A stretch of DNA of 64,000 nt from Candidatus Parcubacteria bacterium (GTDB lineage Bacteria; Patescibacteriota; Minisyncoccia; Phycocordibacterales; PALSA-1337), in the NCBI GenBank assembly GCA_039799225.1, contig JBDLTF010000001.1, positions 42,488 to 106,487 of the forward strand, read 5' to 3'. The notes below the pieces were generated by a model, which was not told the origin of the DNA, did no database searches, and worked only from the letters and a program-made list of their open reading frames with translations. Both the position numbers and the translations under genes were made by a program. Positions 16,071 to 44,645 of this stretch are shown here, piece after piece (positions within the stretch are counted from its first letter, which is position 1; every line of letters begins with the position of its first letter).

Positions 16071-18047
16071 ATGTCCACTCTCAATGACGCTCAACAACGC
16101 GCCGTCGACACCTTCGACGGCCCCGTCCTCATCATCGCTGGAGCTGGGGCAGGTAAGACACGGGTGATCACCCAACGCATCCTCAATCTGATCAAAAAAG
16201 GGGTTGCTCCGCACAATATTCTTGCTATCACCTTCACCAACAAGGCTGCAAAAGAGATGCGTGAACGTGTAAATCACCTTATTGAACAGGATGCGACCCT
16301 GAATGTACCTATTTCATTTCATGAACGACCATTTTTGAGCACATTTCATGCGCTTGGCGTCCATATCATCAGAGAAAACGCTGTTTTGCTCGGTTTAACT
16401 CGCCATTTCACCATCTGTGATCGTGGGGATTCCAAGCGCGCAGTAAAGGATGCCATGGAACAGTGTTCTATCGATCCGAAGAGATTCGACCCAGGAACCA
16501 TGCTCAATATGATATCTCGTGCAAAAGGGGATGGTATGAGTCGTCTAGAGTATGCAGACGCAGCCAATGATCATATGCAAGAAATGGTCGCTCAGGTCTG
16601 GGAGAAGTACGATGCAACCCTGCTCAAAGATAAATCTCTCGACTTTGATGACCTCCTGCTCAAAACCATGCAACTTCTTGCGAACAATCCTCAGGTACGC
16701 GCAAAATATCAGTCTATCTGGAAATATATTCATATCGATGAGTATCAAGACACAAATAAGGTGCAATACAGGATTGCAAAATACCTCGCCGAAAGGCACC
16801 ACAATATTTGCGTAGTGGGTGATGCGGACCAGAATATCTATAGCTGGAGAGGTGCGACCATCGAAAACATCTTGAATTTCGAGAAGGATTACCCAGAAAC
16901 GACCGTTATCGCACTCGAGAAGAATTATCGCTCAACCAAGACCATTCTCGCAGCTGCCAACAGTGTCATCGAGAAAAATCGTTTACGAAAGAAGAAAACT
17001 CTGTACACAGACAATGACGCGGGCGAGAAAATATCACTGAATGCCTCATATACTGAAGTCGATGAAGCGCGCAATATTGCAGACTCTGCGCGAAATATTA
17101 TTGAGAAGGGAACTTCCGCACGAGATATTGCCGTACTCTATCGCGCAAATTTCCAGTCACGAGCCATAGAAGAGGCATTCATCAAGAAAAATATCCCGTA
17201 CCAACTCCTCGGTGTGCGCTTCTTCGAAAGAAAAGAGGTTAAAGACGTGTTGTCATATATTCGCGCAGCGCTTAACAAGGAATCATGGGCTGATATAGGT
17301 AGAGTCATCAATACTCCCGCACGCGGAATAGGGAAGGTTTCCATCGTAAAAATCATGTCAGGAAGATCGGATTTGTTGCCGAGTGCTATGCGAGAAAAGT
17401 TGAGCTCGTTCTGGAAACTCTTGGAGGATATACGTCACGAAATCTATGAGAAGAAGCCTTCTGAGGCGGTGCGTTTCGTCATTCAAGAGACTGGTCTCGA
17501 GCGCATGCTCCGTGCAGGGGACGCAGAAGATGAAGAACGGTTGCTCAACATCCAAGAATTGGTATCTGTCGCGGCTCAATACGATGAATATGTCGCACCG
17601 GAACAACCTGCGGACGCAGTTACGGAAGAGAAGATACCTGCAGGCATCGAGGCTTTCCTTACAAATGCCGCGCTCGCGAGCGACCAAGATGATCTCGAGA
17701 AAGACCATGACGCCGTACGTCTCATGACTGTTCACGCCTCGAAAGGTCTCGAGTTTGACCACGTATTCATCGCCGGCCTTGAGCAGGACCTTTTCCCATT
17801 CAAGCATATGGACGATGAAGGTATGAGCGAATCAGAAAGCGAAGAGGAGCGCCGTCTCTTCTATGTCGCATTGACGCGCGCCCGCAAAAAGGTACATTTG
17901 AGTCATACGCTCATCCGCACCGTCTATGGTGCTCAGCGTGTGAATACCGCATCGGAATTTATCGGGGATATAGAGACATCTCTCATCGAAGACCAAGCTC
18001 CACCTGAGAAACCTTCAGGAGCAAAGGCACTCTTCATTGATTTTTAA
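16071..18047 (+). CDS. UvrD/PcrA-type ATP-dependent DNA helicase
   Basis: 658 aa. Walker A AGAGAGKTRV and the standard SF1 helicase motifs. Confidence 0.85.
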   Translation: MSTLNDAQQRAVDTFDGPVLIIAGAGAGKTRVITQRILNLIKKGVAPHNILAITFTNKAAKEMRERVNHLIEQDATLNVPISFHERPFLSTFHALGVHIIRENAVLLGLTRHFTICDRGDSKRAVKDAMEQCSIDPKRFDPGTMLNMISRAKGDGMSRLEYADAANDHMQEMVAQVWEKYDATLLKDKSLDFDDLLLKTMQLLANNPQVRAKYQSIWKYIHIDEYQDTNKVQYRIAKYLAERHHNICVVGDADQNIYSWRGATIENILNFEKDYPETTVIALEKNYRSTKTILAAANSVIEKNRLRKKKTLYTDNDAGEKISLNASYTEVDEARNIADSARNIIEKGTSARDIAVLYRANFQSRAIEEAFIKKNIPYQLLGVRFFERKEVKDVLSYIRAALNKESWADIGRVINTPARGIGKVSIVKIMSGRSDLLPSAMREKLSSFWKLLEDIRHEIYEKKPSEAVRFVIQETGLERMLRAGDAEDEERLLNIQELVSVAAQYDEYVAPEQPADAVTEEKIPAGIEAFLTNAALASDQDDLEKDHDAVRLMTVHASKGLEFDHVFIAGLEQDLFPFKHMDDEGMSESESEEERRLFYVALTRARKKVHLSHTLIRTVYGAQRVNTASEFIGDIETSLIEDQAPPEKPSGAKALFIDF

Positions 18048-18049
18048 AC

Positions 18050-18847
18050 ATGAAACTATTCGCAAAAAAATCTCTCGGTCAACATTTCTTGAACTCAACA
18101 CATGTGCTTGAGCAAATTATCGCTGCCGCACAACTCGAAAAAGGGAAGCTGGTACTTGAGATAGGACCGGGAACCGGTGTTTTGACACGTGCTCTGTTGG
18201 CAGCAGGCATGAATGTCATCGCAGTCGAAAAGGATACACGCGCCATCGATGTACTCAAAGAAACATTCAAGGAAGAAATGTCTGTTGGAAAATTACATCT
18301 CATTGAAGGAGATATTCTTGAAATGACACCCGAGAAGCTGTCTGAAAATTCTTTGTTACCTTCTTCATACTCCCTTATAGCCAATATCCCTTACTACATA
18401 ACCGGAGCCATCCTCGAAAAATTCCTCGAACATGGTCCACGACCAGACAAGATGGTGCTCCTCGTGCAAAAAGAAGTTGCAGAGCGCATCGTCACGCGTG
18501 ATGGCAAAGAAAGTATCCTTTCAATATCGGTCAAAGCATTTGGTACACCGAAGCTTGTCGCAAAAGTTCCTCCAGGTGCATTCACACCTCCACCAACTGT
18601 CGATTCAGCAATACTCTCTATCACTGACATATCGGACAGACTCTTCACTGAGAAGAATGTTGATATATCGAAATTTTTCTCAATCGTAAAAGCGGGATTT
18701 GCTCACAAAAGAAAATTTGCTATTCGAAATGTTGAGACTGTTCTCGAGAGGGAAGTTGCCGAAGCTGTTTGGAAAAAAACGAATCTCGACCCGAAGATAC
18801 GCGCCGAGGATATCACCATATCAGACTGGCTCAATATCGCTTCGTGA
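18050..18847 (+). CDS. rsmA: 16S rRNA (adenine1518/1519-N6)-dimethyltransferase RsmA/KsgA
   Basis: 265 aa. LGQHFL, SAM-binding motif EIGPGTGVLT, NIPY. Confidence 0.85.
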   Translation: MKLFAKKSLGQHFLNSTHVLEQIIAAAQLEKGKLVLEIGPGTGVLTRALLAAGMNVIAVEKDTRAIDVLKETFKEEMSVGKLHLIEGDILEMTPEKLSENSLLPSSYSLIANIPYYITGAILEKFLEHGPRPDKMVLLVQKEVAERIVTRDGKESILSISVKAFGTPKLVAKVPPGAFTPPPTVDSAILSITDISDRLFTEKNVDISKFFSIVKAGFAHKRKFAIRNVETVLEREVAEAVWKKTNLDPKIRAEDITISDWLNIAS

Positions 18848-18861
18848 TAGAATAGTGGTGC

Positions 18862-19851
18862 ATGAATCAAGAAGGTGGACACAAAAAACTCATACTAACG
18901 ATACTCGTACTCATTCTGCTTCTCATCGTTGCTGGCCTACTGATTCCTTGGAACAAACCTGAGGAAGTCGCCGTAGATACCACTGGAAATGGGACTGTCT
19001 TTTCTCCATTCGAACGTCCTGTAGATCGTGTAGTTGATACTCGATCGCCCGAAACTCCGTATACTTATGTACCTACACTCGAAACTCCAGAGGAGATTCC
19101 TGAGGAGCCGGCTATCGTAAACTCTGCACCAAGAACTCAGTCTTCATTCTATTCCGGAACTCAATCAAGCCAATCTTTCAATATACCCGTCTCGACGAGG
19201 CAAACTGGCGAAGTTGCATACATGGATACTTCTGGGGGAATATATTATGTTCCAACATACTCTCCGAGCCCTTACTATCGACCAACGTATACCTACTCGA
19301 CGAGCACTCGACCAGTAAGTCAGCCAGCAGCGCAAGATGATGGTATGACATTCAAAGAGCTGGACAAAGAAGTCTTCGGTTATATAAGCGGTCTTGGTTG
19401 GACTCAATTGCTTGGTGATACTGGCCAGAAAGTGTATGACATCCTCTATGGAATGTCTCCAAACGGCGGTACTGGAGGTACTATCGGTACATTCTTGCCT
19501 GGAGCAGGGGGTGCTGGAGGAGGAATTGGAGCTCTCGGAGGAGGCGGTATAGGGGGTCTCGGTGGCGGAGGTACTGCTATGGCATTTGGAGGACAAGTAA
19601 CTAGAGTAACCCAGTGTACCTGTGGAAATTCGAGCATGCTCGATATCACTGAAGCGACCGGACAGAATATATCACTCGTTTTCCAGCCAGGAGTGAGCAT
19701 TCTCTACAGGGAAGCGAACATCAACGGCATAGGCCAGAATGTTCTCGGAAATTACACTGCTGGCGGCGCCTGTCTTGTATATCACGGCGAAGATTGCACC
19801 GCTGAAGGTAGTCCTGGAGGCACCATTACCGAGGTTGGGACTTCGAAATAA
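18862..19851 (+). CDS. T4SS-like operon gene 1: membrane-anchored protein with a Pro/Thr/Tyr-rich linker and a Gly-rich repeat (GGTGGTIGTFLPGAGGAGGGIGALGGGGIGG)
   Basis: 329 aa. N-terminal TM, then low-complexity region. Begins 14 nt after rsmA. Confidence 0.5.
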   Translation: MNQEGGHKKLILTILVLILLLIVAGLLIPWNKPEEVAVDTTGNGTVFSPFERPVDRVVDTRSPETPYTYVPTLETPEEIPEEPAIVNSAPRTQSSFYSGTQSSQSFNIPVSTRQTGEVAYMDTSGGIYYVPTYSPSPYYRPTYTYSTSTRPVSQPAAQDDGMTFKELDKEVFGYISGLGWTQLLGDTGQKVYDILYGMSPNGGTGGTIGTFLPGAGGAGGGIGALGGGGIGGLGGGGTAMAFGGQVTRVTQCTCGNSSMLDITEATGQNISLVFQPGVSILYREANINGIGQNVLGNYTAGGACLVYHGEDCTAEGSPGGTITEVGTSK

Positions 19852-19902
19852 AGTCAGAAACAAAAACAGTGATACCTGTCCACAGATACGGCCGAGAATC
19901 TA

Positions 19903-20802
19903 TTGATTTTCTGCTATACTTGTAGTGACATGGCGAGCTATTACCCTCACAAACAGACGGTCTTGATCACGATCGCATGCGTCATAGCCGTAGGCGGCGT
20001 ATTTGTATACGCAAAGCAAGGTTCTAGCCCGAAAAAATCAGACTCAAAACCCTCTGTTTCGACTGATATCAAGGTGGTCTCTTCTGAGAAAATATCCTCC
20101 ACAACGGATTGGCGTCTGAGCTTCATCGACAAGCAGACTCCTTCGACACCAAAACCTATTTCTACTACTCAAGAATCGAAAGACCTTACTCTGACGGATC
20201 AATTCGGCAGAGATTTCTTCGCACGCTACATACAACTCAAGCAAAGCAACCTCATCGAGAATGAATCGTTCGTCGCTGATACGCTCAATCAGTCTATATA
20301 CTCCGCTGCTCAATCAGCTGAACAACCAAAAGCATATACTCTCGCGGATGTTTCCATTCTCGCAAATGCCACTACGGCTCAGATAAAAGCGTATGGTAAT
20401 TCTATCGGTCTAATATTTTCCACTCATGGAGTCGATGGAGATCCTGCAGTCGTTGCAAACGAGGCATTTGAAAAAGGGGATATGAGCTTACTCAAACAGA
20501 TAGACCCTATCATATCTTCATATGAAACTATCACCACCATGCTCAAAAATCTTTCTGTGCCTCAACCGCTCGCTGCATATCATGTAGATCTATTGAATGC
20601 TGTATCGAGCATGGCGAAGACATCTCGTGATATCCGCAATGTTGAAAGCGATCCTATGCAGACGATGGTGTCCGTAAGCGCGTATACCACCGTACAAAAC
20701 TCGCTCACTGTGTCACTCAAGAGTATGAAGTCTTATTTCTCCATCGTTGGTATCTCGTACGTTTCGACGGAGCCTGGTTCGATCTTTTCCCAACTATTAT
20801 AA
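19903..20802 (+). CDS. T4SS-like operon gene 2: membrane-anchored or secreted hypothetical protein
   Basis: 299 aa with an N-terminal TM/signal anchor. Confidence 0.5.
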   Translation: MIFCYTCSDMASYYPHKQTVLITIACVIAVGGVFVYAKQGSSPKKSDSKPSVSTDIKVVSSEKISSTTDWRLSFIDKQTPSTPKPISTTQESKDLTLTDQFGRDFFARYIQLKQSNLIENESFVADTLNQSIYSAAQSAEQPKAYTLADVSILANATTAQIKAYGNSIGLIFSTHGVDGDPAVVANEAFEKGDMSLLKQIDPIISSYETITTMLKNLSVPQPLAAYHVDLLNAVSSMAKTSRDIRNVESDPMQTMVSVSAYTTVQNSLTVSLKSMKSYFSIVGISYVSTEPGSIFSQLL

Positions 20803-20811
20803 AACACACTT

Positions 20812-22416
20812 ATGAATATCATTAACAAAAAAATCGCTTCGGTCCTCATACTCATCGCTTTCGTCATCTCTGGCACTCTCGCAACGCCAGCAACGACCTA
20901 TGCACTTGGAGCGGTTCCCGTCGACACAACATTCAACTTCCATAGCATCCAGCAACAAACGAAGGATTTCGTGCTGAACTCACTCGCATGGAATGTGGCT
21001 AAGATGACGTTGCAGCAGCTCACGACGAGTATCGTGAACTGGATCAACACTGGATTCGAGGGAAGTCCTGCATTCATCGACAACCCTGAGGCATTCTTCC
21101 TTGACCTTGGCGACCAAGTCACTGGAAACTTCATTGCAAACGTCGGACCACTCCAAAGCCTCTGTTCTCCATGGAATATCGACCTCCGTCTCTCACTCGC
21201 ACTCGGACAAACACGTTCAATGAGCGAACGCTATCGCTGTACCTTGAGTACACTCATCGGTAACGCGCAGAATGCGACTATCAATGGCTACAGTATCGAA
21301 GGATTCACTTCTGGCGACTTCGCTCAAGGAGGATGGCCAGCATTCATGATCATGACGAGCGAACCTCGCAACAATCCATACGGATCATATCTTCAGGCGA
21401 AGAGTGACCTCGATCAGCAGATAGCCGCTAAACAAAACTCCGTCAACAGTGACCTCGACAGGGGACAGGGCTTCCTCTCGTGGCAAAAGTGCGTTCCTAC
21501 CAACGTGAACAGCAATACAGGAAATGCATCTTCTCTTGGTCTCAATCAGAACGACCTCGCTCAATTGAATGCAAATGGTTCAGTAAATGCGAACGGTACA
21601 AGCTACAAAACGAGTACTGATCCTGAAACAGGATATACCGTATACGAAACATGCTCCGTACAAACTCCTGGATCGGTCATCAGTGCAGGTCTCAATAAGA
21701 GCCTTGGATCAAGTGTGGACCAGCTCAACCTTGCTGACTCGATCAACGAAATTACGAGTGCACTCTTCGCTCAGCTCATATCTCAAGTCTTCACTAAGGG
21801 TCTCGGTGGAAGCAGTCAAAGGTCAGGTGGTCAGACACAGTCATACATCGAACAACTCAATGCACAGTCGAGAGGTGCTGGTGCATATTCAAACTCGACG
21901 CAGAATATCCAGGCAAGCTACGCAATATATCTCACTGATGCCCAGTCAATCGTCAGCACGTATCAGCAAGCTGTAGGTGCATTCGACACTACCCGCAGTA
22001 GCTTCTCGATTGCACAGGGTTGCTTCCAAGATATCGCTCTCGTAGCAACGAAGCAAACCATCAAGAATGAGGCTCAGCGCAATGCAGATGCAATACAGTC
22101 ACTACTCATCAACCAGTTCGGCCCAGCAGCGCTCATATATTCAGACAAGCTCTCTACAGCAAACAGAATAGTCAGTACGATCAATTCTCGCGTCAATTCG
22201 GCACAGAATATCACCGATGCTCAGAGTGCACAGACTGCTTCGAACCAGTTGCAGGAATTCATCGCCACCCAAGTCCCCGCTATCCAGCAAGGCAAAGATC
22301 TTGGCGCGGCAGATCTTACCGCAGCACGAGCTCAAGCAGCACAATTCAAGACGAATGCTGATCAATATATGAATATGTGTACTTCACTCAAAAGCCAATC
22401 AGGTTCCTCACGATAA
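20812..22416 (+). CDS. T4SS-like operon gene 3: secreted Gln/Ser/Asn-rich hypothetical protein
   Basis: 534 aa with signal peptide ending ...GTLATPATTYA. Confidence 0.5.
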   Translation: MNIINKKIASVLILIAFVISGTLATPATTYALGAVPVDTTFNFHSIQQQTKDFVLNSLAWNVAKMTLQQLTTSIVNWINTGFEGSPAFIDNPEAFFLDLGDQVTGNFIANVGPLQSLCSPWNIDLRLSLALGQTRSMSERYRCTLSTLIGNAQNATINGYSIEGFTSGDFAQGGWPAFMIMTSEPRNNPYGSYLQAKSDLDQQIAAKQNSVNSDLDRGQGFLSWQKCVPTNVNSNTGNASSLGLNQNDLAQLNANGSVNANGTSYKTSTDPETGYTVYETCSVQTPGSVISAGLNKSLGSSVDQLNLADSINEITSALFAQLISQVFTKGLGGSSQRSGGQTQSYIEQLNAQSRGAGAYSNSTQNIQASYAIYLTDAQSIVSTYQQAVGAFDTTRSSFSIAQGCFQDIALVATKQTIKNEAQRNADAIQSLLINQFGPAALIYSDKLSTANRIVSTINSRVNSAQNITDAQSAQTASNQLQEFIATQVPAIQQGKDLGAADLTAARAQAAQFKTNADQYMNMCTSLKSQSGSSR

Positions 22417-22434
22417 TCTACTATCACAGACTCC

Positions 22435-24354
22435 ATGAAACGCTACCTGCCACATCTATCAGCAATTCTCATCCTTATCGCCATCATAGTAGGCGGATTT
22501 GGACATGTGGCAAATGCGGGATCATGTCTACCTATTCCAGGCCAGTGGAATACAAATGATTGTGTCATCGACCTCTTCGGATCTGCTATAGATATATTGC
22601 TTGGAGCAGCATCATGGATACTCGCTCTCTCAGGATATGTGCTCAACTTCTCAATGAAGCTGACACTCAATATCAAGACATTCGTGGATAATACTGGCGC
22701 AATCTATCTCGTCTGGAAATCAATCCGCGATATATCGGGTATGTTCATCATCTTCACCTTGATCTTCGCTGCCATCAAGATGATACTCGCTCCTATAGGA
22801 GTACCTGGTCCGAGTGTCGGAAAACTAATTACGACTGTGGTAACAGCCGGCATATTGATCAACTTCAGCTTCTTCATTGCTGGCCTCGGTATAGATATCT
22901 CCAACGTAATATCTGCACAGCTCTACAAGGTCATAGCGCCTGAAAGTAATATTTCTGGAGACATGAAAGTGAATCCTTCGTCATTGCGTGCGGGTCTCGA
23001 TGGGGGAATATCAGACATATTCATGAGCTCGCTCAAAATACAGAAGCTCTACGAAAGTGGACTTGCCGCTGATCCAGGTCGACAGGATCAAAATCCTGCA
23101 GAGACCACTATTCGAGTCATTTGGTCTGGAATCATCGGTATCGTCATCATGATCACCTCTGCACTCAGCTTCTTCCTCGCTGCGTTAGCATTCATCGTAC
23201 GCTTCGTTATTCTTATATTCCTGCTTGGATTCTCTCCTATCTGGCTTGCCGCGTACGCCATACCAGATCTCAAAAAATATGCCGACATGTGGACGAACAC
23301 ATACAAGAGTCAGCTCATCTTCATGCCGGTATATCTTCTCTTGCTCTATTTCGGCTTGAGTGTGCTTACAAGTGCTGACCTCTTCTGGGCTGGAAGCTTC
23401 GATGGGGCAGGGTGGCAAGAAAAGTTGCTCGTCTTCGGTATTAATGCGGCCTTCGTCATCATCATGCTCAATGCACCACTTCTTGCAGCTCTCAGTATTG
23501 GAGCAATGATGCCTAAGTGGGCGAATAATGTAGGTGCAGGAGCAATATGGAAGAGTGTTGGTGGATGGGCAGGTGGTATAGCTGGCAGAGGTACGATGCG
23601 AGTAACTGGTGCCTCGAAAGTTGATGGTTATCTTGCAAATACCAAGGTCGGTAACACTCAGTGGATGCGTGATCTAAGATCAGTAACAACAGGACCTATT
23701 ACCAAGGCAAAATTTGGTAGTTCAAGGTCTATTGAAGATGTCGACAAACTAGGTAAGGACGTACAATCAAAAGCAAAAGAAATACAGAGGGTCAAAGACA
23801 TTAAAGCTCTTATTGCGAATGGTTCAGCGACACGAGATGAATATGCGAATGTATTCAAATCCGTTAAACCTGCTGACCGCGTAGAGCTGATTGGAAAGGA
23901 TAATCTCAAGAATCCAAGTGTCTGGAAGAACCTTGGAAAGGCTGAGCTCGACGCAATAGAGAAATCAGACAAATTTAGCCCTGATGACATCAGCAGTATA
24001 AAGAATGCCCGCAACGCAGCACTCACCTCAGCAGTAGCTGACGGAAGAAAAGACGACACTAGTCATGTCTTGAAAAATACAAATACGGAGGATTTGGCTG
24101 AAATTATTTCAAGTAACACTGCTATGCTCGCTAATCCAAACTTTATTGGTGAGCTGACATCGGAAAATCTAACAAAGTTGAAAGGTGGCCTCACTGAGCC
24201 TCAGCAACATGAAATAGCAAAAACTATTCTGACATGGCGCAGTGGCCCATCAGATCCAGCGCATCCTGCGGAAGGTTGGATGAAACGCGAAGCGAAAAAG
24301 TGGGTTACTTCGGACGTGACCGCACACGGAAAAACATACGCTCCAGAAGCCTAA
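22435..24354 (+). CDS. T4SS-like operon gene 4: polytopic membrane protein of the VirB6/TrbL type with a hydrophilic C-terminal extension
   Basis: 639 aa. Signal/anchor, then six or more TM helices over about 380 aa, then a Lys-rich soluble tail. This topology is typical of VirB6/TrbL. Confidence 0.5.
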   Translation: MKRYLPHLSAILILIAIIVGGFGHVANAGSCLPIPGQWNTNDCVIDLFGSAIDILLGAASWILALSGYVLNFSMKLTLNIKTFVDNTGAIYLVWKSIRDISGMFIIFTLIFAAIKMILAPIGVPGPSVGKLITTVVTAGILINFSFFIAGLGIDISNVISAQLYKVIAPESNISGDMKVNPSSLRAGLDGGISDIFMSSLKIQKLYESGLAADPGRQDQNPAETTIRVIWSGIIGIVIMITSALSFFLAALAFIVRFVILIFLLGFSPIWLAAYAIPDLKKYADMWTNTYKSQLIFMPVYLLLLYFGLSVLTSADLFWAGSFDGAGWQEKLLVFGINAAFVIIMLNAPLLAALSIGAMMPKWANNVGAGAIWKSVGGWAGGIAGRGTMRVTGASKVDGYLANTKVGNTQWMRDLRSVTTGPITKAKFGSSRSIEDVDKLGKDVQSKAKEIQRVKDIKALIANGSATRDEYANVFKSVKPADRVELIGKDNLKNPSVWKNLGKAELDAIEKSDKFSPDDISSIKNARNAALTSAVADGRKDDTSHVLKNTNTEDLAEIISSNTAMLANPNFIGELTSENLTKLKGGLTEPQQHEIAKTILTWRSGPSDPAHPAEGWMKREAKKWVTSDVTAHGKTYAPEA

Positions 24355-24363
24355 TATCATTAT

Positions 24364-25098
24364 ATGAAGCAAACACCTCAACAATTTAGAGACCTCGCTG
24401 ACTCAGCTGAACTCTACGACCGATCCGAAGCGATTGGCGCGAAATTTGGTCTGCTCATCGACCAAATAGGGGAGTTGGATGCAGAAATTCGCGACATTCT
24501 CAATGGTGTCAGTGATTCGGAAGACTTCATCAAGCACATCATCCAGCGTCTTGAGATAGACCGCGGACTCGCCGAAAAAATAGTAACGGAGGTCAATGTG
24601 GCCGTATTCCAAACACTCAAAGACCAGATGCAGGCACGAACGGATGCTCAGGATATACAAGACTCAATCTCGAGCGTAGAGAAAGTGGGTGATTTCAGGA
24701 TAGAGAAGGATAGAGTGCCTGCAGATCCGAAAGTTACTGCTGCGGATAGGAGCAAGATACTCGATAGTCTCGAAAATCCACCGGCTCAAGGAGGTGCGTA
24801 CCCAAAATCAGTCTCTACAGACCATACTGAACCTCTTGTCGACCATCTTCTTCAAAATTCAGTAGGACAGCTTGCGCCGAAGCCTCACCACGAAGCTCCA
24901 GCTCCAAGCAATCTCCCTGTAGTAGAAGAGATTCCTCTGAAAACACCTGCGCCAACTCCAATAAAAGCTCCAGCACCTACCGCCCCAAAGCCTGTTCAAG
25001 CACCAACACAACCGACAACTACTCCAGAAGTACCGAAAACTCCAGCACCTCAACCAAAAAGGTCTGGACCTGACCCTTATAGGGAACTAGCGAACTAG
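24364..25098 (+). CDS. T4SS-like operon gene 5: soluble protein with a Pro/Ala-rich C-terminus
   Basis: 244 aa. Confidence 0.45.
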   Translation: MKQTPQQFRDLADSAELYDRSEAIGAKFGLLIDQIGELDAEIRDILNGVSDSEDFIKHIIQRLEIDRGLAEKIVTEVNVAVFQTLKDQMQARTDAQDIQDSISSVEKVGDFRIEKDRVPADPKVTAADRSKILDSLENPPAQGGAYPKSVSTDHTEPLVDHLLQNSVGQLAPKPHHEAPAPSNLPVVEEIPLKTPAPTPIKAPAPTAPKPVQAPTQPTTTPEVPKTPAPQPKRSGPDPYRELAN

Positions 25099-25132
25099 CA
25101 CACATTCTCACTTGCCGGTATAATAAAGAGCA

Positions 25133-25564
25133 ATGCGCTATCAAGTCCCCCAATTTATCGAGGTTGAGGACAAGATCTTCGGCCCACTTACCTTGAAACA
25201 GTTCATATATCTCGCCGGCGGGGGAGGTCTCTCATTTTTGGCCTATGTATTTGTCGGTAGTCTCACTATCGCCATAGTACCTATCATTGTCATCATGGCA
25301 ATATCCTCTGCTCTGGCATTCTATCGAATCAATAACAAACCATTCGTTAACATCGTCGAATCTGCATTCAAATACTGGCTCGGTAGCAAGCTCTACATCT
25401 GGAAAAAAGAAGACAGGGCATCACAAACCGCGAAATCAGTTGATGCAGACATCAAGAACTACGCCTCAATCATGGTTCCGAAAATTTCTGATAGTAAGCT
25501 GAAGGATTTGAGTTGGAGCTTGGACATCAAAGAAAGTATGTACTCTGACAAGAAACAAAAATAA
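25133..25564 (+). CDS. T4SS-like operon gene 6: small two-TM protein of the VirB3/PrgI type
   Basis: 143 aa. Two adjacent TM helices, positioned immediately upstream of the VirB4 ORFs as in Gram-positive T4SS loci. Confidence 0.5.
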   Translation: MRYQVPQFIEVEDKIFGPLTLKQFIYLAGGGGLSFLAYVFVGSLTIAIVPIIVIMAISSALAFYRINNKPFVNIVESAFKYWLGSKLYIWKKEDRASQTAKSVDADIKNYASIMVPKISDSKLKDLSWSLDIKESMYSDKKQK

Positions 25565-26205
25565 TGGCTCCCAAACAATCAACAACTCAAGGATTTATAC
25601 CGATACAGGAGATTCGCGACGGCGTAGTCATCCTCAAGAACGGCGGTATGCGCGCAGTCGTCTTGGCGTCGTCTCTCAACTTCGCTCTCAAGTCACAGGA
25701 TGAGCAGAGCTCAATCCTTATGCAGTTCCAGAATTTTGTGAACTCACTCGATTTTTCCATACAAATATTCGTCCAGTCTAAGAAACTCGATATCAGACCA
25801 TACATCGCGCTTCTCGAAGACCGCTACAAAGAACAGGTGAGTGAGCTCATGAAGATTCAGGTTCGTGAATACATCGAATTCATCAAAACATTCGTCGAGA
25901 GTACCAACATCATGTCCAAGAGCTTCTTCGTGGTCATACCCTATGATCCACCTATTATGAGTGGTAGCAAAAATCCTCTCGCCAGCATGTTCCCAGGGAA
26001 GAGTGGTGACAAAACTGCAGCAGAGAGCTCAAATGCAAAATTCCAAGAATATCGCAGCCAACTCGAACAGCGTGTCGGCGTGGTAGAGCAGGGCCTCGTG
26101 CGTTGCGGTGTCCGTGCGGCTGAGCTTGGTACAGAAGAAGTAGTTGAGCTCTTCTACAAACTCTTCAACCCTGGCGAGACGGAGAAGCCAATTCAGATAA
26201 CTTAA
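25564..26205 (+). CDS. VirB4/TrsE-family ATPase, N-terminal segment (split gene)
   Basis: 213 aa. The N-terminus resembles the VirB4 N-terminal domain. It ends with TAA 5 nt before the next ORF, which is in a different frame. Confidence 0.55.
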   Translation: MAPKQSTTQGFIPIQEIRDGVVILKNGGMRAVVLASSLNFALKSQDEQSSILMQFQNFVNSLDFSIQIFVQSKKLDIRPYIALLEDRYKEQVSELMKIQVREYIEFIKTFVESTNIMSKSFFVVIPYDPPIMSGSKNPLASMFPGKSGDKTAAESSNAKFQEYRSQLEQRVGVVEQGLVRCGVRAAELGTEEVVELFYKLFNPGETEKPIQIT

Positions 26206-26210
26206 AAGAT

Positions 26211-28022
26211 ATGTCATTCCTCAACAAACTATTCGGAAAAAAAGAAGCTTCTCCTATCGTCTCAATCCTGCCCGAGGAGATCTATCAGGCTGGCGTCCTC
26301 GAACTCAAGGATGTTATTTCGCCATCAGCGCTCAAGGTGAGTCCGAAGGATATAAATCTCGGAGAAAAAGTTGGTCGCACACTCTTCGTCATCTCATACC
26401 CACGCTTCCTCGATGAGAGCTGGTTCGCGCCAATCATAAACCTCGACAAGATATTCAATATCTCCATATTCATACATCCTGTCGATACTGCGAAGATTTT
26501 GAGGCATTTCCAGAAGAAGGTTGCTGAAGTTCAGAGCCAGATCTCCCATAGGGAAGAGAAGGGTCTCGTTCGTGATCCAGCGCTCGATACCGCATACCAA
26601 GATCTCGAGCAGCTTCGCGATCAGCTCATGCAAGCACAGGAGCACCTCTTCGATGTTGGTGTGTATATTACTCTCTTCGCTGATAATGAGGGTGAGCTCG
26701 ACAAGCTTGAATCAGAGATCAAGTCTATCCTCGAGTCCAAGCTTATCTATGTGAAGCCAGCTCTCTTCCAACAGGAACAGGGATTCAAGTCTGTTATTCC
26801 GATCGCTGACGATCAGCTCGCCGTTCATTCCAAGCTCAACTCGTCACCGCTCTCATCTCTTTTTCCATTCGTCTCATTCGACCTCACCTCAGACAAGGGA
26901 ATCCTCTACGGTATCAACCGTCACAACTCATCACTCGTACTCTTCGATCGCTACTCACTCGAGAACTACAACTCGGTGACTTTCGCCGTTGCCGGTGCTG
27001 GAAAATCCTACAACACCAAGCTTGAGATCCTCCGAACACTCATGTTTGATGTCGACGTCATAGTCATCGACCCTGAGAAGGAATATGAATACATGGCGGA
27101 AGCAACAGGAGGGAAGTACTTCAATATCTCACTCAACTCAGAGCACCACATAAACCCATTCGATCTTCCGATACCACGCGAGGATGAGTCTGGTGCAGAT
27201 GTGCTCCGCTCAAACATCATCAACCTTGTCGGTCTCTTCCGCATCATGTTGGGAGGTCTCACACAAGAAGAAGATGCAATCATAGATCGTGCCATCACTG
27301 AAACTTACGCCCTCAAAGATATCACTCCTGAGGCTGATTTCCGCACCGTCGAACCACCACTTCTCTCCGACTTTGAGCTCGTGCTTGCCGGCATGGAAGG
27401 GGGAGAATCTCTTGTGCAGAGGCTCTCGAAATATACCAAAGGAACTTGGTCAGGCTTCATCAATAGGCCGTCAAACATCGATATCAATAAGAAATTCGCT
27501 GTGTTTTCACTCCGCGACATGGAAGATGAGCTCAAGCCAGTGGCCATGTACATCGTCACACACTACATCTGGAATGCTATCCGCAAGAACCTCAAGAAGC
27601 GCCTTCTTGTTATCGATGAGGCGTGGTGGATGATGAAATCAGAGGACACGGCTTCATTCTTGTTCAGCCTCGCCAAGCGTGGTCGTAAATACTTCCTCGG
27701 TCTCGCCACAATCACTCAGGACGTGGATGACTTCTTGAATTCACCGTATGGACTGCCGATTGTGACCAACTCCTCAATCCAGATTCTTTTGAAACAGTCA
27801 CCAACTGTTATTGATCACGTCCAGAAGACTTTCAACCTCACTGATGAAGAGAAATACCTCTTGCTCGAGTCAGACGTAGGGGAGGGTATATTCTTCGTGG
27901 GTCTCAAGCACGTCGCCATCAAAATCGTCGCCTCATATACTGAAGACCAAATCATCACCACCAACCCTGCTCAGGTTTTGAGCATACAGCAATCAAAGAA
28001 GGATCTTGAGCAGGCTGGGTAA
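26211..28022 (+). CDS. VirB4/TrsE/CagE-family T4SS ATPase (ATPase domain)
   Basis: 603 aa. Walker A FAVAGAGKSY, Walker B RLLVIDEAWWMM, and motif ATITQDVDDF. Confidence 0.75.
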   Translation: MSFLNKLFGKKEASPIVSILPEEIYQAGVLELKDVISPSALKVSPKDINLGEKVGRTLFVISYPRFLDESWFAPIINLDKIFNISIFIHPVDTAKILRHFQKKVAEVQSQISHREEKGLVRDPALDTAYQDLEQLRDQLMQAQEHLFDVGVYITLFADNEGELDKLESEIKSILESKLIYVKPALFQQEQGFKSVIPIADDQLAVHSKLNSSPLSSLFPFVSFDLTSDKGILYGINRHNSSLVLFDRYSLENYNSVTFAVAGAGKSYNTKLEILRTLMFDVDVIVIDPEKEYEYMAEATGGKYFNISLNSEHHINPFDLPIPREDESGADVLRSNIINLVGLFRIMLGGLTQEEDAIIDRAITETYALKDITPEADFRTVEPPLLSDFELVLAGMEGGESLVQRLSKYTKGTWSGFINRPSNIDINKKFAVFSLRDMEDELKPVAMYIVTHYIWNAIRKNLKKRLLVIDEAWWMMKSEDTASFLFSLAKRGRKYFLGLATITQDVDDFLNSPYGLPIVTNSSIQILLKQSPTVIDHVQKTFNLTDEEKYLLLESDVGEGIFFVGLKHVAIKIVASYTEDQIITTNPAQVLSIQQSKKDLEQAG

Positions 28023-28509
28023 CATCATTATGGATACAAATCCCAAAAAGAGAACTCTTGCAAAGATAGTCCTTTTCGGATTTTCTGCAATCGTAGACTT
28101 CGCTCAGGTACTCATAACCTTCACTGGTGTCGGTATAGTGGTGAGTGAAGCGATTGAGATTGCTATGCCATTTGCCTTATTCGCACTATTCACTATATTC
28201 AAGATATCTATCATCAATAAACCGAGAAGAGTGGCATCTATGCTTGCTGTCGGATTTGGAGATGCTTTGACGGGTGGTGTAGCGCCATTTTGGGTATTCG
28301 ATGTCTACTATATATTCCGAGATGTGGCCAGAGAAGACGCCCTTATAAATTCAGAACGAGAACAATCTGAAGCCTTGGCAAACACCACAATGCAGCCTTT
28401 ATACCAAAATGGTGTCAGACAGCCACAATCTCAGCCTAATGAAAGACCACAGAACAAACTCAACAAAAATGGTATCCGAGCACCTGGAGGAGGACTGGTC
28501 AAAAGCTAG
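28006..28509 (+). CDS. T4SS-like operon gene 9: small membrane protein with three TM helices
   Basis: 167 aa. Confidence 0.45.
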   Translation: MSRLGNIIMDTNPKKRTLAKIVLFGFSAIVDFAQVLITFTGVGIVVSEAIEIAMPFALFALFTIFKISIINKPRRVASMLAVGFGDALTGGVAPFWVFDVYYIFRDVAREDALINSEREQSEALANTTMQPLYQNGVRQPQSQPNERPQNKLNKNGIRAPGGGLVKS

Positions 28510-28562
28510 CCTATACACATTTTTCATCGCATATAGAGCGTAATATTGCTAAAATAGAGTCA

Positions 28563-29597
28563 ATGAACTCTCGTTTTCTCTCATTTTTGATTGTATGCAT
28601 TTGCATCTCTTTCTTGTGGGTATCTACTGTTTCAGCCCAGACCATACCTACAGGAATTAGTGGCCTCGTCATCGAGACGTCGTCTTCCAATCCGTACCCA
28701 GGACAGGAGGTAACGGTAACACTCAAAAGCTACTCTATAGACATAGACTCTTCGACTATATCTTGGTCCATAAACGGGAAAGCTGTCCAGAGCGGTATAG
28801 GTACAAAAACCGTCAAAGTAATCGCCCCTGACCTTGGAAAATCATTGGTGGTATCTGTAAGCGCTCGTGCAAGCTCTGGAGCGACAATGTCTGATTCAAT
28901 AACAATAAGCCCAAGCTCCGTCGACATGATAGTGGAATCAGATGGCTATGTGCACCCACTCTTCTCAGGAAAAGTATCTCCACGATATCAGAACGTGGTC
29001 AAAATAATTGCTGTACCACATCTCAGCGCAGCCAACGGAACAGAATACGACCCGAAGACACTCATATATACTTGGAAAAAGGGAAGTACTGTACTCCAAG
29101 ACCAGTCCGGTTATGGTAAACAGTCTATCTATCTCGCAGGAGACATCGTTCCACGACCATACGAGGTGACTGTGTCGATCGCTACGCGTGATGGTGGTGC
29201 ACAAGGACAAGGAACTTTGTCCATCGGCGCAACAAACCCATCAATAGGATTCTATGTCACCGATCCGCTCTACGGAACTTTCTTCAATAAGGCTGTGACT
29301 AACACTGTACGCATAGGTTCAGAGAAGGAGACTTCTGTTCTCGCTGTACCATTCGGATTTAACAAGCCTATAGATGGTATCGGGAATCTTTCATTGACCT
29401 GGCTCATCAACAGTATCAAACACTCTGAACTAGCTTCTAGCCAATCTGTCATTTTGCGCGCACCTGAAGGATCTGCAGGAACATCCAACATACGCCTCGA
29501 TATCAGGAATAGCGATAAGATTCTACAGAGCGCAAGTACTGGATTCTCAGCGAGCTTCACTGGGAATACTGAAAGCGAGGAAGATGTCTCATTCTAA
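28563..29597 (+). CDS. T4SS-like operon gene 10: secreted beta-rich hypothetical protein
   Basis: 344 aa with a signal peptide. Confidence 0.5.
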   Translation: MNSRFLSFLIVCICISFLWVSTVSAQTIPTGISGLVIETSSSNPYPGQEVTVTLKSYSIDIDSSTISWSINGKAVQSGIGTKTVKVIAPDLGKSLVVSVSARASSGATMSDSITISPSSVDMIVESDGYVHPLFSGKVSPRYQNVVKIIAVPHLSAANGTEYDPKTLIYTWKKGSTVLQDQSGYGKQSIYLAGDIVPRPYEVTVSIATRDGGAQGQGTLSIGATNPSIGFYVTDPLYGTFFNKAVTNTVRIGSEKETSVLAVPFGFNKPIDGIGNLSLTWLINSIKHSELASSQSVILRAPEGSAGTSNIRLDIRNSDKILQSASTGFSASFTGNTESEEDVSF

Positions 29598-29606
29598 TCA
29601 TTTCTC

Positions 29607-30764
29607 ATGAATACACTTATGAAAAAAACATGCACACTAGCCTTAGCGACATATATCATCGCCGTATCCATCGCACCGATAACTATATATGCAGATACTG
29701 GATCAAATACCACCTCTGGAAATTCTGTCGCGACCTATACATTGCTTGAACCATTACCTTGTCTCAATGACGGAACACAAAAATGTACGGATGGGGGGAT
29801 AGTTACACAGGTAAACTTCGCCGACTATGTTCGTTATATGTTCAATTTGATTATTGCACTCTCAGCCGTTGCGGCAGTGCTCGTCATTGTCGCTGGAGGA
29901 TTCAAATATGTCACCACCGACTCATTCCAAGGCAAGAATGACGGAAAGAAGATGATACTTGAGGCACTCAAAGGACTTCTGCTGGTACTCTGTTCTTACC
30001 TTATCCTCAGAACAATCGACCCTCGTCTTGTGGATATACCTTCGACAATAGTGAAGCCTCTTCCGATCAGTTATCAAAAAGGAGTGACTTACGGTTATTT
30101 CGACCAGCTCGCATCAGAAGCTAGCAAGTATAATGCGAATGATCGAGCAGCCGTACTCGCTCGAGAAGTAGCGAAGAAACAGACTCAGGATCTCAAAAAT
30201 CAGCTGGATATAATTGACGAGAAGCTAGGAAAAATATACAGCGGTGATGCAGAAGCGACTCAGGAAGAAATAAATTCACTGAGTAAACAACGTGCGCTTA
30301 TTTCTGATCAGATAAATGGAACTATTTCTGAGGCAACAATACAAAATGCTATTGCTATATACAACGCACAAATGCGAAATGTGGTTGACCCTAAGGATGA
30401 AGTCACTCTCGACACGATAGAAGCCTACCTGAATAACATTCAGAAAGTGAATGCTTCAACACAAGAACAACTCAACAAGAATTTGAATGAAGAGACACCT
30501 GAGCAGAAAGAAAAGCTCGCAAATGAAAAATCCTATTCGGAAGCTAGAATACTCATAGTGAAATACGAACATTTCACCACTTCGCTCGATCCAAAAGCAG
30601 TTGATGCTGCAATAGCAAAACTGAATTCACTAAAGACAACCACTATCGCATCGATTACTGACAAAACACGAAGAGATGAATTGACCAGCGCTGCAGATAA
30701 AGCGATCGAGAGCTTGAAGGCAAGCATTAGCACTGACGCTTATGATGGTGGTGTAATGTATTAA
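29607..30764 (+). CDS. T4SS-like operon gene 11: signal peptide plus two hydrophobic helices separated by a short loop (VirB2/TrbC-pilin-like topology), then a roughly 230-aa coiled-coil extension
   Basis: 385 aa. Confidence 0.4.
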   Translation: MNTLMKKTCTLALATYIIAVSIAPITIYADTGSNTTSGNSVATYTLLEPLPCLNDGTQKCTDGGIVTQVNFADYVRYMFNLIIALSAVAAVLVIVAGGFKYVTTDSFQGKNDGKKMILEALKGLLLVLCSYLILRTIDPRLVDIPSTIVKPLPISYQKGVTYGYFDQLASEASKYNANDRAAVLAREVAKKQTQDLKNQLDIIDEKLGKIYSGDAEATQEEINSLSKQRALISDQINGTISEATIQNAIAIYNAQMRNVVDPKDEVTLDTIEAYLNNIQKVNASTQEQLNKNLNEETPEQKEKLANEKSYSEARILIVKYEHFTTSLDPKAVDAAIAKLNSLKTTTIASITDKTRRDELTSAADKAIESLKASISTDAYDGGVMY

Positions 30765-30777
30765 TCGATAGATTTCT

Positions 30778-32100
30778 ATGAAAAAAATCCTCCCCGTACT
30801 CCTCATATTCCTCATCCTCGCAGCCACGGGGTATTGGTATTTCTTCATGCGCACATCAACAACTGGTACAACACCTGATACGACTGGAACTGATCAGCAG
30901 GGAGGATTCCAGCCATTTGGAAGACCTTCAACAGGAGGTCAGCAAGGAACAGAGACCGGGAGCATTCCTGTAGTTTCAACAAGCACTGATGTATCAACTC
31001 CAGTCAAAATACCCACCCTCCGCCTCTTGAGTGCTACGCCTGTCGGAGGATACGGCGCCAGCACGACCGCTAGCACGACCGTTATACGTTGGGTAGATCG
31101 CGGAAGGGGCAACATATACGAGGCACGTGGTAACACTCTCGATACCATCACTATATCCAATACCATCGTTCCAAGGATATACCAAAGTATATGGAATAAG
31201 GCCGCAAATGCATTTATCGCTTCAACACTCGACGAGGATGGAGCATCTATAGGCTCAGTCTACGCCGACATCAAAGCCCGCATCATTCCCAAGGCTGCTA
31301 CAAGCACCTCGGCCACAAGCACACCTAGACTCGGACTTGGAGTAGGGGCGGATGGGCAGACTATCACTCCTTATGAGCTTAAGGGTAAAAACCTTCCTGA
31401 GAATATCGTTGCATACGCCGCATCTCCGAAGAGAGACAAACTTTTCATGCTTGTCGATGATAATGGTACTGGCATAGGCTATGTATCCACATTCGATGGA
31501 AAGTCCGTGACTCAGATCTTCAGCACTCCACTCACCCAACTCAATGTAGAATGGCCTGAGGAGAATACGATTGCTCTAACAACAAAGGGTACAGCTAGCG
31601 AAGGGGGGTACCTCTACTTTGTTAACGCAAAGACAGGTATCTGGAGTAAAATTCTCGGTCCACTCGCGGGTATAAGTACTCGTGTGAGTACTGATGCCAA
31701 GCGTGTACTTGTATCTACCACCGGTAGCAACAAGAATGTTCTTGCGAGTATTTATACCGTTGCCGACAAGAAGGGTATAGATGCAATCGTCAGAACACTC
31801 GCCGACAAATGTATTTGGGGTAATTTCTATAAAGAAATGGTGTACTGTGCGACACCATCACAACCAACAGCAGGAATATATCCTGATGACTGGTACACAG
31901 GAACTATTTCGACCGTAGACAAGATATGGCAGATCAACGGAGCAACGGGGGAGATTCAACTCGTCTCTTCTATAATCGATACTTCCGACCGTGTCATCAA
32001 TGCATTCAATCTCGGTCTAGATCAGAAGGACAACTTCCTCTTCTTCATGAATAAAGATGACTTATCTCTCTGGTCACTCGACTTGGTTTCAAGCAACTAG
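30778..32100 (+). CDS. T4SS-like operon gene 12: membrane-anchored or secreted hypothetical protein
   Basis: 440 aa with an N-terminal TM. Confidence 0.5.
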   Translation: MKKILPVLLIFLILAATGYWYFFMRTSTTGTTPDTTGTDQQGGFQPFGRPSTGGQQGTETGSIPVVSTSTDVSTPVKIPTLRLLSATPVGGYGASTTASTTVIRWVDRGRGNIYEARGNTLDTITISNTIVPRIYQSIWNKAANAFIASTLDEDGASIGSVYADIKARIIPKAATSTSATSTPRLGLGVGADGQTITPYELKGKNLPENIVAYAASPKRDKLFMLVDDNGTGIGYVSTFDGKSVTQIFSTPLTQLNVEWPEENTIALTTKGTASEGGYLYFVNAKTGIWSKILGPLAGISTRVSTDAKRVLVSTTGSNKNVLASIYTVADKKGIDAIVRTLADKCIWGNFYKEMVYCATPSQPTAGIYPDDWYTGTISTVDKIWQINGATGEIQLVSSIIDTSDRVINAFNLGLDQKDNFLFFMNKDDLSLWSLDLVSSN

Positions 32101-32114
32101 AATAGCTTGGTAAC

Positions 32115-32145
32115 AAAAAAGCACATCTCTCAATGTGCTTTTTTG
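32115..32145. terminator. Bidirectional terminator aaaaaagcacat-ctctca-atgtgctttttt between the convergent operon and yidC
   Basis: Perfect hairpin with A/T runs. Confidence 0.6.
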
Positions 32146-32154
32146 TTACTGGAA

Positions 32155-33370: not shown

Positions 33371-33423
33371 AGGTGCATACTATAAATCAAAACTGATAAT
33401 TTCGCAAGTATTTAGAGTTTCTA

Positions 33424-33541
33424 CTAGAACACAAGGAAAGATGTGTGCAAACTGCCATGTAGGCACAGTGAATTACATATAATGTCCTCCAAGAAACTTT
33501 GCCGGTATGGCAGTTTGCACACATCTTTCCTTGTGTTCTAG
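33424..33541. promoter_or_regulatory. Perfect 35-bp inverted repeat (ctagaacacaaggaaagatgtgtgcaaactgccat, arms at 33424-33458 and 33507-33541) in the rpmH-dnaA intergenic region. Putative oriC or dnaA-promoter element, flanked by DnaA-box-like TTATCAACA.
   Basis: Exact reverse-complement match of 35 nt around a 48-nt spacer. Confidence 0.5.
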
Positions 33542-33628
33542 TTGTCCCCAACTTATCAACATAAATTTTATCTCTCCACAAGTTTGCAAATCTATAAACA
33601 GGTATATACTTACTGGGCATCAAATCCT

Positions 33629-34975: not shown

Positions 34976-35200
34976 TTGGGGAAAAGTCTGTGAATAAGTT
35001 GTATATAGAGTAGGAAAAGTCTGTGGGTAAACCGATAAGTAATACACATAAACATCTCAGGAAAAAACCAGATAAAAACTTTCAACAAGATGTTTAAAAT
35101 AAAAAACCTATAGCACTCATATCTGAAGCCATTAAATTAATTTATACACATACCCACAGGACTAATAACGAATGTGTGATTAAATAAATAAAAAACTACT
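34976..35200. promoter_or_regulatory. Putative oriC: AT-rich dnaA-dnaN spacer with DnaA-box-like 9-mers TGTGAATAA, TGTGGGTAA, and CCACAGG on the opposite strand
   Basis: Boxes one mismatch from TTATCCACA, AT-rich runs (the DNA unwinding element), and a position typical of Firmicutes-type origins. Confidence 0.5.
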
Positions 35201-44495: not shown

Positions 44496-44645
44496 TGATG
44501 TACAGTATAGCGACAAGTGAGGACTTGTGGAAGCTCGCTTACACAAAGTCCGAGCGCGGATGATATATGAGCGGAGCGAATATTTCGCAAAAAAGGGAGC
44601 TGTGTCGTGCGGATAAGAGCTCTCAACTAAGCCATGGGAAGCCTA

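Follow-up and report, generated by a model that had tools for sequence, protein, structure and literature searches.

A type IV secretion locus of the Patescibacteria clade in its Paceibacteria arrangement, beside the likely replication origin of a Candidatus Parcubacteria genome

The Patescibacteria, which live in attachment to other microbes, account for a large part of bacterial diversity, and theirs was the first type IV secretion system (T4SS) for which essentiality to the carrier bacterium itself was demonstrated. In Southlakia epibionticum, Wang et al. (2023, Cell) described an unusual T4SS that resembles Gram-positive conjugation systems and carries pilins, but has no coupling protein or relaxase, and transposon sequencing (Tn-seq) showed its genes to be essential for epibiotic growth (PMC10633639). 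The core genes of that system are ordered VirB6-like, PrgI, an unnamed protein and VirB4 (tables of PMC10633639). Quinonero-Coronel et al. (2025, Microb Genom) detected VirB4 in 2,417 of the 3,035 Patescibacteria genomes surveyed and placed it as a single clade within the MPF_FATA class, with TrsD as its commonest partner and PrgI/VirB3, VirB6 and PF18895 pilins nearby; relaxases occurred in only 103 of the 3,035 genomes, and 5,713 VirD4-like type IV coupling protein (T4CP) homologues were spread over 2,918 genomes, mostly far from virB4 (PMC12102498). In Paceibacteria, dnaA, dnaN, rnpA, ksgA and rpmH adjoin virB4 (PMC12102498), and a 2025 review lists the Patescibacteria systems as a recognised new branch of the T4SS superfamily (PMC12857230). 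Here we analyzed a cluster of twelve open reading frames (ORFs) at 18862-32100 of a 64,000-nt stretch of DNA from a Candidatus Parcubacteria bacterium (hereafter, the window). The cluster is not a new kind of system; it is the published Patescibacteria T4SS in the origin-adjoining arrangement of Paceibacteria, of which it provides a clean and complete example. With good confidence we read it as a T4SS of the Patescibacteria clade that is probably non-conjugative and serves host-contact-dependent transfer or attachment.

The ORFs are numbered O1 to O12 in order of position. All twelve were confirmed on the + strand between rsmA and the terminator on the yidC side, separated by gaps of -17 to +53 nt, which agrees with the twelve co-directional ORFs between rsmA and the yidC operon reported in a preliminary description made from the letters of the window alone. 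Five of the ORFs have counterparts in known T4SSs:

22435-24354, + strand: O4, VirB6-like polytopic protein of 639 amino acids (predicted fold; weak TrbL matches in orthologues)
25133-25564, + strand: O6, PrgI/VirB3-like protein with two transmembrane (TM) segments (PF12666)
25564-26205, + strand: O7, TrsD-like, the N-terminal VirB4 domain as a separate ORF of 213 amino acids (NCBIfam matches)
26211-28022, + strand: O8, VirB4 ATPase of the MPF_FATA / CD1110 type (NF045971, PF19044)
29607-30764, + strand: O11, VirB2-like pilin domain with a long tail (PF18895)

For comparison, one genome per species was scanned, which yielded 505 VirB4 relatives. The loci around the best 80 of them (77-98% identity) were fetched from pcrA onwards and labelled L001 to L080, and synteny and identity were counted in 41 loci with full flanks from species-level Paceibacteria genomes. 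Among the best 80 of the 505, all taxon-named relatives were Patescibacteria, Paceibacteria or Parcubacteria, including Taylor-, Zambryski-, Campbell- and Nomurabacteria and similar Paceibacteria-type genomes, and about a dozen were labelled 'bacterium' only. The window proteins themselves are identical to hypothetical proteins of a Candidatus Parcubacteria metagenome-assembled genome (NCBI locus tags RLY66_64-66).

O8 matched NF045971 with 365 bits against a cut-off of 325 (E-value 8e-109; model positions 180-733 of 752) and PF19044 with an E-value of 1e-24. Its closest solved relative was the C-terminal domain of Thermoanaerobacter VirB4 (PDB 4ag5, E 1.3e-38), and TrwK in the PDB was matched at E 5e-4. 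The Walker A (AGAGKS) and Walker B (LLVIDEAW) motifs, read from the translation, are intact. The VirB4 lineage of O8 is probably nested in the monoderm MPF_FATA class. The N-terminal part of VirB4 that O8 is without is supplied by O7, which lies in a different reading frame and matched NF045975 over positions 100-233 (E 9e-10), NF045971 over positions 2-110 and, weakly, the TrsD model NF041427 (E 2.8e-5, 24 bits against a cut-off of 200). A separate O7-type ORF of about 211-216 amino acids is present in 39 of the 41 related loci, and this recurring two-ORF form, together with the TrsD match, rules out that O7 and O8 are a frameshifted pseudogene. Judged from these comparisons, the pair is the known TrsD plus VirB4 arrangement and its split is ancestral. 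Just upstream, O6 clearly exceeded the curated cut-off of PF12666 (46.6 bits against 27; E 5e-12). The profile searches therefore bear out the VirB3/PrgI and VirB4 calls of the preliminary description; its 'split' VirB4 was correct as to the two ORFs, the split being the conserved arrangement just described.

O4 consists of a signal peptide, about six or seven TM helices within residues 1-400 and a long hydrophilic coiled-coil tail. A Pfam scan of the window protein gave no match, the TrbL matches of its orthologues were weak, and a profile comparison with PrgH of pCF10 gave a weak signal, the only one among the pCF10 comparisons. The predicted model of O4 superposes best on TrwI/VirB6 of R388 (PDB 7o3v / 8rtd), so that the VirB6/TrbL-like identity proposed earlier is supported by the predicted fold along with the weak matches in orthologues. 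In O11, a signal peptide is followed by a two-helix hairpin (residues 78-135; TM segments 81-99 and 116-134) and a C-terminal coiled-coil tail of about 250 amino acids, which is predicted from the inferred topology to lie on the extracellular side. PF18895 was matched by 40 of 42 O11 orthologues (best E 4.7e-10), in keeping with the earlier reading of a VirB2-like pilin with a long tail. The orthologues differ widely in the C-terminal extension joined to the pilin hairpin, their total lengths being 140-615 amino acids, and single orthologues carry the cell-wall hydrolase domains NlpC/P60, CHAP or Peptidase_M15_4. Some genomes have two or three copies of O11-type genes (e.g. L029, L050, L074).

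The order pcrA-rsmA, O2 to O12, yidC-dnaA-dnaN is kept in the 41 related loci. O2-O4, O6-O8 and O10-O12 stand in the same order, each in 33-41 of the 41 (O2 in 33, O3 in 40, and O6, O10 and O12 in all 41), and nearly all loci have divergent positional homologues in the places of O5 and O9. This conserved order indicates that the ORFs are real genes, and the unnamed neighbours O2, O3, O5, O9, O10 and O12 are shown to be fixed components of the locus. Orphan ORFs conserved in genomes without the ATPase had been named in the preliminary description as evidence that would speak against it; in all related loci examined, the orphans co-occur with the ATPase. The median identity to the window proteins was 81% for O8 (VirB4), 62% for O7 (TrsD), 57% for DnaA, 54% for O6 (PrgI), 49% for DnaN and 27-39% for the exposed proteins, with O2 at 27%; VirB4 is thus better conserved than DnaA or DnaN. 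The high identity of VirB4 against that of the exposed parts points to an indispensable motor with a fast-evolving interface, and the comparison across 41 species separates the constrained motor (VirB4, TrsD and PrgI) from the fast-evolving exposed parts. The divergence of the T4SS proteins correlates with that of DnaA, DnaN and YidC (rho 0.5-0.78) and the cluster matches its flanks in guanine-cytosine (GC) content, which together argue for vertical inheritance. On these grounds we regard the locus as core-chromosomal and vertically inherited, neither a mobile island nor a decaying remnant, and its fixed position in 41 species and concordant divergence agree with the core-chromosomal location beside the origin that had been proposed.

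The flanks of the cluster are as follows, with yidC, rnpA and rpmH downstream on the opposite strand and dnaA and dnaN after them:

16071-18047, + strand: pcrA, directly upstream of rsmA
18050-18847, + strand: rsmA (= ksgA), directly upstream of O1
32107-32152, no strand assigned: bidirectional terminator-like hairpin with a 20-bp stem, a 6-nt loop and T-runs on both sides

The hairpin, between the stop codons of O12 and yidC, is the only strong terminator-like hairpin of the + strand. A scan of the cluster for sigma-70 promoters gave matches not above chance, and an Rfam scan of the window found tRNAs only. The cumulative GC skew has its minimum and turn near 32 kb, and four DnaA-box-like sites, each with one mismatch, lie at 34887-35150 in and beside the dnaA-dnaN spacer, which together suggest that the cluster borders on the likely origin and that its transcription runs in the direction of the origin. 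From the skew minimum, the 14-gene block from pcrA to O12 would lie on the lagging strand, with transcription head-on towards the origin. The orientation of this block relative to dnaA and yidC is the same in 41 of 41 relatives. The rpmH-dnaA spacer contains a 47-nt inverted repeat (33423-33469 / 33496-33542; 91% complementary, with a 26-nt spacer), and the listed TTG start of dnaA (33542) falls inside its right arm. The real dnaA start is probably the ATG at about 33629, because the DnaA N-terminal domain begins near residue 35.

Compared with the Paceibacteria T4SS of PMC12102498, the locus shows no difference of substance. It has the MPF_FATA-type VirB4, the separate TrsD-like ORF, PrgI/VirB3, VirB6 and a PF18895 pilin near virB4, has no relaxase or T4CP nearby, and is chromosomal beside dnaA, dnaN, rnpA, rpmH and ksgA. 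The other neighbours were left unnamed ('grey') in that study; here they are conserved positional components for which partial descriptions of fold or motif can be given. The T4SS of Southlakia epibionticum ML1 (SEML1_0006-0019), which lies at the start of the chromosome numbering, shares the core order VirB6-like, PrgI, TrsD-like and VirB4, the PF18895 pilins inside the cluster and the absence of a recognisable relaxase or coupling protein. However, the Southlakia locus differs in its six short pilins, which form an array, its two VirB6-like proteins of very large size (999 and 1,089 amino acids), its extended PrgI of 301 amino acids, its NTF2-like (VirB8-like) protein and the peptidase/lysozyme genes that neighbour virB4, whereas the window has one long-tailed pilin and one VirB6-like protein of 639 amino acids, together with O3, O5, O10 and O12.

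Similarities to better characterised systems are more partial. With the Prg/Pcf system of Enterococcus pCF10, the MPF_FATA prototype, the locus shares a CD1110-type VirB4, PrgI and the gene order VirB6 (PrgH), VirB3 (PrgI), VirB4 (PrgJ), but pCF10 has an unsplit VirB4 of 796 amino acids, the hydrolase PrgK, the VirB8-like PrgL, the coupling protein PcfC, a relaxase and LPXTG adhesins, and it is without a pilin, of which the window has one. The staphylococcal Trs systems of pGO1/pSK41 likewise have the N-terminal VirB4 domain as a separate protein (TrsD) ahead of the ATPase; they differ in being plasmid-borne conjugation systems with a relaxase and a coupling protein and no pilin, and the TrsD match is weak. 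The Trw system of R388, on whose TrwI/VirB6 the O4 model superposes and to whose TrwK/VirB4 O8 aligns, offers a mechanistic template in which VirB4 hexamers below a VirB6/VirB5 stalk feed VirB2 into the pilus, although, being a diderm system, it also has an outer-membrane core (VirB7/9/10), VirB5, VirB8, VirB11 and VirD4, none of which was detected here.

DNA-processing genes were sought in the larger ORFs of the 64-kb window. No family match to a relaxase or coupling protein was obtained for O1-O12, no relaxase or VirD4 was found in ten other large ORFs, and the remaining ORFs of at least 180 amino acids are without VirD4-like size or a P-loop. Nor was an integrase, a mobile-element boundary or, although no search was aimed at it, an oriT-like element seen in the window. 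Since no relaxase or coupling protein is linked to it, the locus is probably not a conjugation apparatus. The earlier statement that VirD4 and a relaxase are absent accordingly holds for the larger ORFs, but the absence of VirD4 says little, since T4CPs are usually far from virB4 (PMC12102498). None of the locus profiles matched the VirB8-like PrgL, the VirB1-like PrgK or the VirB8-like chains in the PDB, and comparison of all orphan profiles with pCF10 PrgC-G, PrgK-M and PcfA-C gave no match.

By analogy with solved T4SS structures and Gram-positive systems, hexamers of VirB4 and TrsD would dock on PrgI and the VirB6-like protein, giving a membrane translocon and pilin-extraction platform. 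O11 would be extracted from the membrane as the subunit of a short fibre or conduit, its tail facing outwards. The part that spans the wall and touches the host cell would be formed or decorated by the exposed, lineage-specific O2, O3, O10 and O12, together with O9, a small membrane protein. O5, with its C-terminal D-x-Y-R-E peptide, may dock at the ATPase side as an adaptor or may itself be a substrate, and the machine as a whole is probably needed for the life of the cell, as in Southlakia. A non-conjugative role in host contact is the most likely one, and both our tests and the published Patescibacteria T4SS (PMC12102498, PMC10633639) match the non-conjugative, stripped-down T4SS-like machine, perhaps for host interaction, of the preliminary description. 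More tentatively, and judging the odds to be against it, we propose that O2, O3, O5, O9, O10 and O12 are structural or functional parts specific to the Paceibacteria version of the machine, in which O5 would be either an adaptor docking on VirB4/TrsD in place of the coupling protein or a conserved translocated substrate, and O3, O10, O12 and the long-tailed pilin would build a wall-spanning, host-contacting structure unlike any characterised T4SS. Several points weigh against the reading as a host-contact T4SS. Essentiality is known for one Saccharimonadia species only, in which the accessory genes differ, and not for Paceibacteria; the roles given to O2, O3, O5, O9, O10 and O12 are guesses from location and topology; the O11 window protein itself matched PF18895 below the Pfam cut-off (E 4.4e-4) and its profile matched no solved pilin by sequence; the polymerisation of a pilin with a 250-residue tail is hypothetical; and a T4CP or an unusual relaxase may be encoded outside the 64 kb of genome covered.

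To our knowledge, the Helicobacter ComB T4SS and the archaeal Ced system function without a relaxase or a VirD4-type coupling protein, and a DNA-uptake machine of this sort, which would bring in DNA or nucleotides from a host or from the surroundings, is the main rival explanation. It would account for the lack of a relaxase or T4CP among the larger ORFs of the window, and it would suit the inability of Patescibacteria to make nucleotides de novo (PMC10633639) and the T4SS loci of the ABY1 class, which adjoin comF, recG and radA (PMC12102498). O8 also partially matches CedB (NF041017, E 1.6e-8), but this match is limited to the P-loop region and reaches 33.6 bits against a cut-off of 700, and no DNA-binding or competence gene lies in or beside the locus. 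In Southlakia, moreover, natural transformation relies on type IV pili together with ComEC, and the cell can do without comEC but not without the T4SS (PMC10633639, PMC12857230). We therefore consider DNA uptake improbable.

A true conjugation system, whose coupling protein and relaxase are encoded elsewhere in the genome or are too divergent to be recognised, appears still less probable, and we regard it as very unlikely. The CD1110 conjugative type of the VirB4, the core order matching pCF10 prgH-I-J and the wide occurrence of VirD4-like T4CP homologues, mostly far from virB4 (PMC12102498), speak for it. However, relaxases are confined to the 103 genomes mentioned above (PMC12102498), and in Southlakia the T4SS is essential but the T4CP homologue is dispensable (PMC12102498, citing Wang 2023). 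In 41 species the locus keeps its place among housekeeping genes and its divergence parallels theirs, and the window has no visible integrase or mobile-element boundary. The missing canonical parts (VirB1, VirB8, VirD4 and relaxase) and an ATPase in two ORFs of different reading frames could instead suggest a decaying, non-working remnant of an integrated conjugative element that has lost its DNA-processing genes. This explanation is effectively refuted: all ORFs and the Walker motifs are intact, the two-ORF ATPase recurs in 39 of 41 species and matches the TrsD family, VirB4 is under stronger constraint than DnaA, and synteny is kept across an order-level group.

The most useful by-products of the analysis are the unnamed neighbours as fixed components of the locus and, as a concrete testable lead, the O5 family with its D-x-Y-R-E motif. 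The seven remaining ORFs of the cluster are as follows:

18862-19851, + strand: O1, variable-slot protein anchored by an N-terminal TM segment, with a region rich in Gly and Thr and a 90-residue C-terminal Cys-containing domain
19903-20802, + strand: O2, bitopic membrane protein whose N-terminal TM segment (19-37) is followed by a linker rich in Ser and a domain of roughly 200 residues
20812-22416, + strand: O3, secreted protein with a signal peptide, a Cys-containing N-domain at about 40-330 and a C-terminal three-helix bundle at 345-531
24364-25098, + strand: O5, cytoplasmic protein by prediction (no signal peptide, no TM segment)
28030-28509, + strand: O9, small membrane protein with about three TM segments and an invariant Asp in TM1
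28563-29597, + strand: O10, secreted protein with a signal peptide and about three beta-rich repeats, each with a W-x-x-N-G ... G-x-G-K motif
30778-32100, + strand: O12, protein with a membrane anchor, a linker rich in Thr and Gly and a beta-rich domain of about 340 residues

O5 has a helical N-domain of about 110 residues, a Pro-rich disordered linker and a terminal D-P-Y-R-E motif. Prediction found no TM segment, no signal peptide and no hydrophobic segment, and O5 would therefore be cytoplasmic, neither secreted nor membrane-bound, which corrects the earlier description of all the orphans as secreted or membrane proteins. In all loci, the positional homologues of O5 share the N-terminal helical domain, the Pro-rich linker and an almost invariant C-terminal motif. 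The motif was found in 63 of the 80 loci, once per locus and without exception in the ORF that immediately precedes PrgI. Searching 1.84 billion proteins with a family profile retrieved 7,181 representative clusters at E<=1e-3, and D-x-Y-[RK]-E lies inside the last 12 residues of 178 of 185 sampled members, the fuller C-terminal peptide being an almost invariant G-P-D-x-Y-[RK]-E. No relatives were found in Pfam or the PDB. From these features, we regard O5 as a candidate adaptor or substrate. A secretion signal common to the neighbours was considered for the D-P-Y-R-E tail and rejected, as this ending is unique to O5 and its counterparts among the ORFs of the window and the 80 loci. In L039, L041, L046, L058, L064 and L070, additional small genes separate the O5 homologue from PrgI (at about 8425-8890 of those loci); one of the inserted proteins (120-125 amino acids) may resemble the four-helix-bundle '23S rRNA intervening sequence' proteins. 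L051 has at the same place (8349-8882) an ORF pair that may be a toxin-antitoxin module.

O2 probably starts at the ATG at 19930, from which the gene caller derives a 290-amino-acid product. Its profile found nothing in the PDB, VirB8-like chains included, and the comparison with PrgL and PrgD of pCF10 was likewise empty, so that a VirB8-like identity was rejected. In O3, the invariant residues include W77, G81, F82, C143, C227, C281, C404 and C523. The AlphaFold2 (AF2) model has a predicted local distance difference test score (pLDDT) of about 97 for residues 360-530 and low values for the N-domain, and a Foldseek search of the PDB with this model gave no match at E<=1e-3; profile matches of O3 were likewise uninformative. 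A relationship to DUF4141 of Bacteroidetes conjugative transposons was rejected: PF13605 was matched by 5 of 72 homologues, below the cut-off and over residues 15-53, which correspond to the signal peptide. TrbJ was matched by two O3 homologues (E 0.017) and the O3 model ends in a three-helix bundle, but a VirB5/TrbJ-like identity was not supported, since the Foldseek comparison with the PDB returned generic helical proteins only and no VirB5, TraC or TrwJ.

The invariant Asp of O9 was identified in an alignment of positional homologues from 25 loci. Candidate identities of O9 as a second pilin or as PrgF/PrgG were rejected, with an hhalign probability of about 1%. The repeat motifs of O10 are visible in the consensus, and its profile gave weak matches to phage Hoc and other immunoglobulin-like (Ig-like) chains (E 0.0065), from which the repeats are probably Ig-like. 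For O12, all twelve PDB profile matches were TolB (best E 0.035), and PD40 was found in two orthologues and DPPIV_N in two; this weakly suggests that the domain is possibly a TolB-like beta-propeller.

O1, which the preliminary description counted as part of the operon, is present at its coordinates and was detected by BLAST in only 3 of the 41 full loci; we class it, from this distribution, as a variable neighbour and not a core component. It has one TM segment (residues 10-28), contains 16% Gly and matched nothing in Pfam or NCBIfam. In 8 loci, its C-terminal domain turns up again in the stretch from rsmA to O2, on one strand or the other. In L010, L029, L040, L054, L055, L057 and L058, the rsmA-O2 slot holds O1-like genes that have only this 90-residue Cys-containing domain in common, and in L008, L063 and L069 the slot after rsmA holds instead a protein of 535-550 amino acids with 12-13 TM segments.

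Three further regions of the window were noted. About 3 kb upstream of the cluster and divergent from pcrA, an ORF on the - strand (14702-15772) encodes a LysM and Peptidase_M23 protein, which is a candidate stand-in for the VirB1-type wall hydrolase. The ORF at 10565-12688 (+ strand) encodes 707 amino acids with a Pro-rich N-terminus and matched no Pfam family at E<=1e-5. Type IV pilus genes lie at 42822-44546 (- strand), 56341-57216 (- strand) and 60939-63018 (+ strand), and include a PilB-like T2SSE ATPase (Pfam E 1.7e-115) and an ORF beginning MKYARGFTLIELLVV, a prepilin-type N-terminus as read from the sequence.

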